This document shows positions 40,901 through 43,900 of a DNA stretch of 64,000 nt, in pieces. This stretch comes from Balanoglossus misakiensis (Eukaryota; Animalia; Hemichordata), in assembly GCA_040954595.2 (NCBI GenBank), contig CM082586.2, positions 8,029,337 to 8,093,336 of the forward strand, written 5' to 3'. The position numbers were made by a program, and so were the translations under genes. The notes below the pieces were generated by a model, which saw only the letters and a program-made list of their open reading frames with translations, did no database searches and was not told the DNA's origin. Within the stretch, counting starts at the first letter, position 1. Each line of letters begins with the position of its first letter.

Positions 40901-43900
40901 GTTGAAAAACAGATTGGGATACTAAAGGGAAGAGAACAGAAAATGTAGTTATAGGCACACAAAAAAGTTGAAAAAATAGCCAAAAGTTGCAAATAATGGA
41001 CCATTATAGGATACATGTCCTAGATAACAGAGGTATCCTTAAAGATGTTTTTCACTGTTTATTCTGAAAATTAAAAATGTACATCATTGCATCTGCAGCT
41101 GCTGAGCTTATGCAATACCAGTATTAAACCATTCAATAAGGCTCAAGATCTAATATTTGCCATGATATTAATGTATTCTTTGAGAAATCCCAACAGACCA
41201 GAAACAGGATTCCTATCAAATGTTAGTATTCATTCTGTATAAAACCCTATTAAGGTGGAAACTGTAGTTTCCATGGTTGTTTTAGTCAAATTTGTAACAA
41301 GTTGATTTTTCTCATGCTGAAATTTATCATAGGTGAGAAACTTCACCAGCCACCAAAAATTCTTTCAAAATGTTGATATTTCCACATGACTGGCACTCTA
41401 TTTGTTTCCTTGGTATGCAAATGAGCACACTATTTGGTGGTGTGGTGACTTTCAATGCAGATTTCAATAAACTGAAAAAAAAAGAAGTTATGTAAAGCAA
41501 AAATAACTAAACAATCAAATAAAAATATTTACCAATGCAAATTAACTACAAAAGAAGATGTTTTTAAAAACACAGAAAAATAGATATTTTCATTAAATAT
41601 TAGCAGCAAAACAGGAACCTTGTTCTGATCTGATGTGCTAGATTTTTGAACTATGTCTATTGTATTACATGATATTTATCTTATAGGAAGATGTATACCA
41701 TCTGAAAGCTAAGATAGCTGATAACATACAACGTGGTCTAATTGTGAGGTATGCTATGCAGTGCCATAGAATCCATGCATCTGTGGGGCATTGTTGATTG
41801 AATGTGCTTATGCTGCAAGAGATTGTGATTTCAATGTGTAAATGCGCAATTGCACAAATATCAATGCGCAAAACTGTGTCCTGCAAATTAATTATTATGA
41901 GGTATTTCCTCAATGTTTCCCCACCTATAGCTGTTAATAGCGACCCCAAATTCCATTTATTTTAAATCCTCGATGTCAAACTTTGTCTCTGGGGTCTCAT
42001 TCCCTTGGGAATCGAAATCAGAAATTGAACTTCAATCAAACATAAATATCCATGTAGCAATTTTAGTATTTACGATCACTTTATTGAAATCACAATCTTC
42101 AGAGCGAGCCTTCTTCTAGATCCAGCTTTAATGCTTGCTTCTGCTTGCATAGATTAACTCTTTTGTTTTATTTACTGACATTTCATCCATTGTACATGGT
42201 TTTGCATTGTCCTTTTTCCTCTTCAGGGGGATGTCTCTCATTTGCGAGCAAAGATTGCCGACAATGTCATGCGTGGTCTTGTCTTAAGGTAGTAGTACTG
42301 GATTTGCAGCGTTTTTTTTTTCTGCTTTGGTTGAGGTTTTTGCGGGCTTTTCTGCGTGGCGTAGACTATTTGCTGTGACTTCATCTTTCATCTCTTTCAA
42401 CTAACTCCCATCATGCACTGCAACTTGTCAGTGCAGAACTCATTGTCACATTCATCCTAACATGTATTTGTGCTCAGAATTTTTTTTTCATTTCTGTATG
42501 TCGGCCATTTTGGATTTATCACATAGTTGTTGATAATATACAGAATTATGAAACTGAACAAAATATGTCATCATAAATCATTTTTCTGTTCAGCTGCCAG
42601 TTTGATATTTACATATTACCATGTGTGAGCTTTTCCACAGAAGCTATTGAACTAAAACTTTAAACCTCAACTTTGGTGTTTTCTCTAATTGCCTAAAGTC
42701 AACACTGCAGCTAAAATTAATGATTGAACACTTTGCTATAAATTATAGCGTGGCCATGTCACATAAATGACACATTTTTTTGGCGATTTCTGTCATCCCT
42801 AATATAATCTCTCTTACCTCACAGAAATATTAAGCCATTATTTATTGACTCTGCTGCAGCTGTTAAAACAACTTTTAATTCAGTTTTCAGCCGATAAGTC
42901 TGTTCATAAATTCATCCACATTTAAATGTATATGACTCAATGTTTTGTACTAAGCCTGTCCGTGGCACTCAACCAAAACCATTGTAGAGATTTGTAAACC
43001 AACATCCCTGGAGAATGGATGGCCAACTGAGTCTTGTACAGACCAGATTTGAAGGCTATGGTCCAGTAAAACCACCAAAGCCACACTTTTCAGCATTGTT
43101 ACCTGATGGTATATAATGTGACACAGTTTGGTGTCCTGTATATTCAACATTTATTGAACATTTACTGCAAATGAAAGTGAAATTGGGAAAACAAAATTAT
43201 TTCTGTGAAACTTTCTCTATCAGTGAGTCACAATTTTACGTCTTTGAATGTAAAATAATATTAATGTTTCAACTAACGCTTCTATTTGTTGATATTTGTT
43301 GCTAGAAATGAGAATGCCAGTGTCAACTACAGTACAGATTTCATCTATCACTTGTATAGTGAGGAAGGTAAAGGTACCTTCACAGCCAGGAAGAATGTCC
43401 TCGGTCATATGCAACAGGTAAGTGTTTGGTAGTGTGTCTCTGTGTGTACTGCATGCTTATGAGTGGTGAGGATGTAAATAACATACATGTACAAACAACC
43501 CGTGAAGAATGTTGGTGGTTGGCATGTGTAGTGAAAAAAAAAGCTGAAAATTTTGTTTTCAGACTGCTTGTAGTTTACTTCGAAAAGTCAGAAGCTAAAA
43601 CTATTAGACATTCTTCAAATCTAGTGATTTGCTTTGGTGTTACATGTGTACATTGTCTCAGAAGCAATACTTTCTTTGCTGGTATTTGAATTTTGAACTG
43701 AAATTTCTCTGTGCTAACAAAAAGTGGCACCCATTTTTCAATTTAAGATGTTTGTTTCAATATAATTGTAATTTACACATATTTATTGTGACAGAGTCAT
43801 ATCTTTCTTAGAGTAATCTTGATGAAATTTTCCACAGTAAAAGTTTATGTCCTTCATTTCCAGTTGATTAACATTGCGTCTGCCAATCAGTTGTGGCAAG

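Follow-up and report, generated by a model that had tools for sequence, protein, structure and literature searches.

A predicted stem between the mutually exclusive exons 18A and 18B of an acorn worm phosphofructokinase gene, and its plausible role in exon choice

Organisation of the phosphofructokinase gene

The 64-kb window, that is, the whole stretch of Balanoglossus misakiensis DNA analysed here, carries an animal phosphofructokinase (PFK) gene on its plus strand, the coding part of which spans roughly 13.9-49.7 kb. Upstream of it lie two tandem plus-strand genes (about 5200-5700 and 9490-10740), the open frames of which we take to resemble short-chain dehydrogenases. Within the PFK gene, tblastn with hemichordate PFKs identified the constitutive coding exon 17 (40343..40507, plus strand), which has AG/GT ends, finishes in phase 0 and corresponds to residues 553-606 of muscle PFK chains; its product is 96% identical to the proteins of Ptychodera flava and Glandiceps talaboti and 95% identical to that of Saccoglossus. 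Mapping of the relatives' proteins onto the window also placed the constitutive coding exon 19 (43306..43417, plus strand) and the exon pairs 14A/14B (36359-36429/37337-37407, 71 nt each) and 20A/20B (45217-45319/46204-46306, 103 nt each).

Between exons 17 and 19 lie the alternative exons 18A (41687..41748) and 18B (42227..42288), both on the plus strand. The former agrees at 19 of 20 residues with the 18A-type isoforms of both P. flava and G. talaboti, and the latter at 19 of 20 (P. flava) or 17 of 20 (G. talaboti) residues with the 18B-type isoforms. The two exons share 39 of 62 nucleotides and 13 of 20 residues, have equal length and phase and are bounded by canonical AG/GT ends. They are tandem homologous exons, a true 62-nt pair. 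The first codon of 18A (41687-41689) specifies glutamate, where P. flava and G. talaboti have glycine. A difference between 18A and 18B at the citrate site was considered and rejected, since the equivalent of human K617 (PMC2990764) is alanine in both exons and this residue does not discriminate between them.

The gene thus has three either-or exon pairs, all in the regulatory half of PFK, which permit up to eight isoforms; every exon length in the 14A/B, 18A/B and 20A/B pairs is indivisible by three. That 18A and 18B are either-or exons, as the initial annotation had implied, is supported by the annotated isoforms of the two relatives. Gene models of P. flava comprise seven PFK isoforms, all of 828 aa, with 18A in four of them, and those of G. 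talaboti comprise six, all of 833 aa, with 18A in three. In these relatives only, exactly one exon of each pair was present in every annotated isoform (7/7 and 6/6). Seven of the eight possible combinations are annotated in P. flava and six of eight in G. talaboti and, since most combinations occur in both, there is no sign of strict linkage among the pairs. The exon pairs themselves are already in the public annotations of these two relatives. A literature search, with subscription journals and supplements (which could list the exons) outside its scope, returned no description of these exons or of the stem discussed below.

Among the parsed matches, only a single form of the exon-18 segment was found in the sampled echinoid and insect proteins and in two Saccoglossus models, and the exon-18 duplication therefore looks specific to acorn worms, as judged from these sequences. 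A metagenome scan with an 18A-derived pattern gave no matches, while a scan with the Ptychodera protein gave 22 loci, none of which matched the 18A-18B intron; tblastn inspection of 14 of these 22 loci showed a single copy of exon 18, mostly fused to exon 17, wherever that exon was covered. The Saccoglossus models P0004 and P0009 finish in a tandem-repeat tail, and their odd ends are probably mis-annotation. P0004 concatenates 20A-like and 20B-like segments, so the exon-20 pair is present in Saccoglossus. Human PFKP also has a mutually exclusive exon that arose as a tandem duplicate in the regulatory half (10.1101/292813, PMC9741552). The change described in these sources lies near residue 539 of PFKP, some 50 residues N-terminal to the segment matching exon 17 (591-644 of PFKP), and hence is not exon 18; by sequence position, the PFKP and acorn worm duplications would appear to be independent.

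Inclusion of both 18A and 18B creates a stop at nt 58 of 18B, 325 nt before the last coding junction, and skipping of both creates a stop at the start of exon 19, 318 nt before that junction. Nonsense-mediated decay would be expected to clear both-exon and neither-exon transcripts. Since both wrong products carry early stops, exclusivity of 18A and 18B requires no structure. Clusters of this frameshift type are reported to make up 60% of human clusters (PMC5740500).

A core stem is predicted in the 18A-18B intron

The initial annotation described a perfect 16-bp inverted repeat in the 18A-18B intron, extended both inwards and outwards. All the motifs it named were present in place: the 16-bp arms at 41820-41835 and 42083-42098, each occurring once in the 64 kb; the inward extensions GTAAATGC (41838)/GTATTTAC (42066) and AATTGC (41848)/GCAATT (42057); and the outward extensions GGCATTG (41787)/TAATGCT (42129) and CTATGCA (41754)/TGCATAG (42146). 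The perfect 16-bp repeat was above chance, being matched in none of 5000 dinucleotide shuffles of the intron, and none of 300 shuffles gave a helix as good as the best one of this intron. Shuffles overstate the rarity of the repeat, because 13 of 266 real overlapping 478-nt tiles of the window hold a perfect inverted repeat of at least 16 bp. As for the extensions, the inward ones exceeded chance (17/2000 shuffles) and the outward ones were at chance level (58/500).

Folding predicted a stable stem with both arms inside the 18A-18B intron, in agreement with the annotation. Its 5' arm (41819..41853, plus strand) and 3' arm (42057..42099, plus strand), which contain the respective 16-mers, pair over 17, 9 and 6 bp plus a terminal G-U, with a 7-nt bulge in the 3' arm (42075-42081) that is 97% unpaired. 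This core of about 32 bp (41820-41853/42057-42098) is predicted to form with a probability of at least 0.85 in all seven folding windows; pairing of the 16-bp helix was 0.88-0.99 and that of the inner helices 0.85-1.0. The lowest-energy structure was without the core in two of the seven windows, with the core retained in the ensemble. Folding energy of the whole intron was mildly low (z -1.69, 4/100). The core stem is predicted to loop out about 200 nt, and Rfam covariance models gave no match to the intron at E ≤ 1.

No stem above chance level emerged for the inter-exon introns of the 14A/14B and 20A/20B pairs (24/100 and 26/100 shuffles, respectively). Strand asymmetry was tried as a sign of selection at the RNA level and was rejected, as the plus-strand advantage of -7.8 kcal/mol fell within the controls (-11.5 to +9.1).

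YGCY motifs flank the alternative exons

The 18A-18B intron contains seven YGCY motifs, every one outside the core stem. Four lie below the 18A donor (41752..41814, plus strand; at 41752, 41762, 41805 and 41811) and three within 14 nt (42132..42145, plus strand), 82-95 nt upstream of the 18B acceptor. The latter cluster was correctly noticed in the initial annotation, which assigned it to the 3' arm; its start is 33 nt beyond the robust part of that arm. In prediction this cluster is mostly paired (unpaired 0.23-0.37). Across the 35-kb gene span, there are three clusters with at least 3 YGCY per 20 nt on the coding strand and one on the opposite strand. Two of the three dense clusters sit just upstream of 14B and 18B. 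The one near 14B (37291-37315) coincides with the likely branch-point region, at 22-46 nt before the acceptor.

The frequency of YGCY per 150 nt was 2.25 in the 12 flanks of alternative exons as compared to 1.17 in 36 constitutive flanks (p=0.009), and the enrichment persisted (p=0.035) after both flanks of the 18A-18B intron were removed. It ranked third among 64 tetramer classes, and YGCY is favoured by pyrimidine-rich flanks. TGCATG was absent within 150 nt of 18A or 18B. MBNL1 is reported to cause exclusion of an exon from upstream YGCY and inclusion from downstream YGCY (PMC2853123). The four motifs downstream of 18A and the three upstream of 18B agree with this MBNL pattern. Tpm1 exons 2/3, which are regulated by MBNL1 and PTB, are likewise an exclusive pair, and there MBNL bound to UGC/YGCY clusters represses the downstream exon, exon 3 (PMC3643581). 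Position and enrichment of YGCY thus make the YGCY-binding regulator put forward in the initial annotation plausible.

The stem as a possible scaffold for a Muscleblind-type regulator

We tentatively favour, with somewhat less than even confidence, a model in which the stem would serve as an FGFR2-like, spacer-shortening scaffold for a Muscleblind-type regulator rather than as a steric block. The stem would juxtapose the four YGCY motifs that follow the 18A donor and the three that precede the 18B branch-point region. A Muscleblind-type protein at the base of the stem would then favour 18A, for which the sites lie downstream, and the same bound protein would hinder 18B and its branch point, for which they lie upstream. 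Where such a protein is scarce, 18B would be the default, and nonsense-mediated decay would clear transcripts with both or neither of the two exons. Extended to all three pairs, the positional rule would give 14A-18A-20B, the combination of isoforms P0124 and P0131, in Muscleblind-rich tissue, and 14B-18B-20A, the combination of isoforms P0121 and P0127, where Muscleblind is low.

Support for the scaffold comes from the robustness of the core across all seven folding windows and its excess over shuffles, from the finding of neither a target-site duplication flanking the stem nor a second copy in the window, and from the enrichment of YGCY at alternative-exon flanks with dense clusters upstream of 14B and 18B. 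The model is weakened by the abundance of transposon-like inverted repeats in the window, by the lack of an above-chance stem in the other two inter-exon introns, by the plus-strand energy advantage lying within the controls, by the rank of YGCY as only the third of the tetramer classes, by the mostly paired state of its 3' cluster, and by the lack of strict linkage among the annotated isoforms.

The FGFR2 IAS2-ISAR stem, reportedly described by Baraniak in 2003, resembles the predicted 18A-18B stem in that both arms lie in the intron between mutually exclusive exons with a protein motif nearby. It provides a precedent for the scaffold: the two intronic elements are reported to pair as a stem that, in concert with Fox proteins, promotes the upstream exon IIIb and suppresses the downstream exon IIIc (PMC2471395). 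Unlike in 18A/18B, function in FGFR2 was shown by mutation and the Fox-family cofactors bind GCAUG, whereas the 18A/18B flanks carry YGCY; no homology is implied. Single inter-exon stems are an already described mechanism, best known from FGFR2, and the 18A-18B stem is real as sequence, plausible as a regulator and of a known class. If functional, it would be a case from an invertebrate deuterostome of one inter-exon stem steering mutually exclusive exons, and would link such a stem with Muscleblind motifs in a glycolytic enzyme at the core of metabolism. The scaffold model predicts which of the eight PFK isoforms would dominate where Muscleblind is high.

The repeat as a possible transposon relic

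Alternatively, the repeat could be a relic that evolves neutrally, with the eroded termini of a miniature inverted-repeat transposon as its most likely origin; proteins and splice-site strength would then choose the exon, and nonsense-mediated decay would enforce exclusivity. Its span of 279 bp with complementary ends of about 30 bp is typical of such elements. The 35-kb gene has four other perfect repeats of at least 16 bp with loops of up to 300 nt, which gives about a 1-in-4 chance of one falling somewhere in the three inter-exon introns. The 14 and 20 exon pairs do without such a stem, and the frameshift stops make structure unnecessary.

Against a relic, no target-site duplication was found within ±8 nt of the stem ends, where 18 of 20 other repeats pass the same test; the test is lax, and the duplication may vanish in old copies. 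No other copy of the stem repeat occurs in the 64-kb window, where 6 of 10 control repeats are likewise single-copy. Bulges and G-U pairs, not scattered mismatches, account for the differences between the two arms, and YGCY clusters lie in the flanks. The missing duplication and the missing second copy weaken the relic, which we regard as the main rival and as only somewhat less probable than the scaffold.

The window contains many miniature inverted-repeat elements and long hairpins. Several of them end in TA, TTA or TTAA or carry 9-bp direct repeats, and some occur in multiple copies within the window. Examples are found at 589-683, 1274-1618, 4106-4190, 24891-25104, 25217-25535, 32138-32405, 46487-46585, 55765-55860 and 63020-63173.

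Outer helices and the distance between donor and branch point

The initial annotation had proposed that the full duplex closes down to position +6 of the 18A donor and sets the donor so close to the 18B branch point that 18A is kept from being spliced to 18B, in effect a steric block. The outermost helix (41754..41760, donor +6 to +12, with 42146..42152; both plus strand) does lie where described, and its predicted pairing is marginal (P 0.10-0.47). The next helix inwards, GGCATTG/TAATGCT, which the annotation counted as part of the duplex, fared worse, with a P of only 0.004-0.02 in the seven folding windows. TTAAC (42154..42158, plus strand; A at 42157, -70), which had been named as the likely 18B branch point, matches the consensus at 5/7 positions and is surpassed by TACTGAC further downstream (42173..42179, plus strand; A at 42178, -49), a 7/7 match. 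From the last AG (42151-42152), which lies in the 3' strand of the outer helix, the sequence is free of AG for 72 nt up to the 18B acceptor, as had been noted; the polypyrimidine tract and AG acceptor occupy 42201..42226 (plus strand). The corresponding zone of the constitutive exon 19 measures 76 nt.

In the linear sequence, the 18A donor is 408-429 nt from the branch-point candidates of 18B. This differs from Tpm1, where exclusivity is due to a branch point near the upstream donor in the linear sequence. If only the core stem forms, the donor is still some 70 nt away from it and the branch-point candidates 58-79 nt, about 130-150 nt in total. The steric limit between donor and branch point is reported to be about 50 nt (PMC5740500, PMC7969005). 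The outer helix, if formed, would shorten the distance to about 10 nt for the adenine of TTAAC or about 31 nt for that of TACTGAC, in either case below that limit. The effective distance was below 50 nt in 41-77% of the structures sampled for the 18A-18B intron, as compared to 22-99% for eight constitutive introns and 9-77% for eight shuffles, and hence within the range of the controls.

A steric block is unsupported because closeness of donor and branch point needs the marginal 7-bp outer helix. In its favour are the pairing of that helix, which reaches 0.47, the short distances it would leave, the 72-nt AG-free zone before 18B and the precedent of Dscam exon 17, where structure is reported to be combined with distant branch points (Yue 2013, cited in PMC7969005). 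Against it, the outward extension is at chance and the GGCATTG helix does not exceed 0.02, the effective distance is no shorter than in constitutive or shuffled introns, and the constitutive exon 19 also has a long AG-free zone; in addition, yeast stems that unite donor and branch point are reported to aid splicing (PMC7404189). Steric exclusion of the kind proposed is described for Dscam exons 17.1/17.2, in combination with RNA structure, and for OGDH exons 4a/4b (PMC7969005). The branch points of OGDH were mapped 25-41 nt from the donor according to the same source, whereas closeness in 18A/18B hinges on a marginal predicted helix. We therefore consider a steric block unlikely.

Candidate competing structures

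Very unlikely, in our estimate, is a switch of the ATE1/Dscam type, in which the 3' arm region would pair alternately with the 5' arm and with elements upstream of 18A (41460-41475, 41659-41682, 40581-40595) or downstream of 18B (42294-42339), so as to loop out or mask either exon in turn. Alternative partners of the 3' arm region also lie over the 18A and 18B acceptor tracts and near the exon-17 donor. The evidence for it comprises 15/16 complementarity of 41460-41475 to 42076-42091, with the 7-nt bulge as a possible toehold; 15 bp between 40581-40595 and 42043-42057, found in 1/300 shuffles, but with a target chosen post hoc; and 14 bp between 42027-42040 and 42326-42339, present in two of seven lowest-energy folds. 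Against it, pairing was at 131/300 shuffles between the upstream and inter-exon introns, 52/200 between the inter-exon and downstream introns, 118/262 jointly with both acceptors and 25/300 for the 41460 helix, and the upstream partners had a predicted P of 0.0. Competing docking or selector structures were rejected for now, as there was no second partner above chance without hand-picked boundaries. ATE1 exons 7a/7b are likewise an exclusive pair with complementary elements (R1-R3-R4) within and beside the intron that separates them; in ATE1, two partners are reported to compete for one element and to mask either acceptor (PMC7797038), whereas 18A/18B has one above-chance helix system. The segment 40581-40595, which pairs with the inner foot of the stem, starts at +74 of the exon-17 donor and so mirrors the start of the 5' arm at +71 of the 18A donor.

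A predicted hairpin at the exon 20B donor and the possibility of a joint switch

The 3' end of exon 20B and its donor (46273-46309) are predicted to base-pair with intron sequence some 110-150 nt further downstream (46413-46453). This helix includes 13 perfect bp (46289-46301/46425-46437; P 0.96) and was matched in none of 400 shuffles; its duplex energy was matched in 7/400. It is the longest among 23 exons, the next being 10, and its intronic arm carries three YGCY motifs. Because one arm is coding, the helix cannot be a transposon end. It makes a use of RNA structure by the PFK gene somewhat more likely. The peptide end encoded by the paired stretch of 20B is identical in B. misakiensis, P. 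flava and G. talaboti. As modelled, the hairpin could be a donor mask or an editing-complementary sequence.

One Muscleblind-type switch might throw all three pairs, acting through the YGCY motifs at the 14B acceptor, through the 18A-18B stem (perhaps closing onto the donor and forbidding joining) and through a protein-opened hairpin that masks the 20B donor, to yield tissue-type PFKs 14A-18A-20B versus 14B-18B-20A. We think so comprehensive a scheme improbable. If it were true, acorn worms would obtain from one gene, by splicing, the tissue-type PFKs for which vertebrates rely on the paralogues PFKM, PFKL and PFKP.

A long CA/CTCA simple repeat precedes the acceptor of 20A (44820-45216), where AG is missing from at least 397 nt, the limit of the scan, and the AG-free zone of 14A measures 143 nt. 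The sequence suggests distant branch points for both 20A and 14A.
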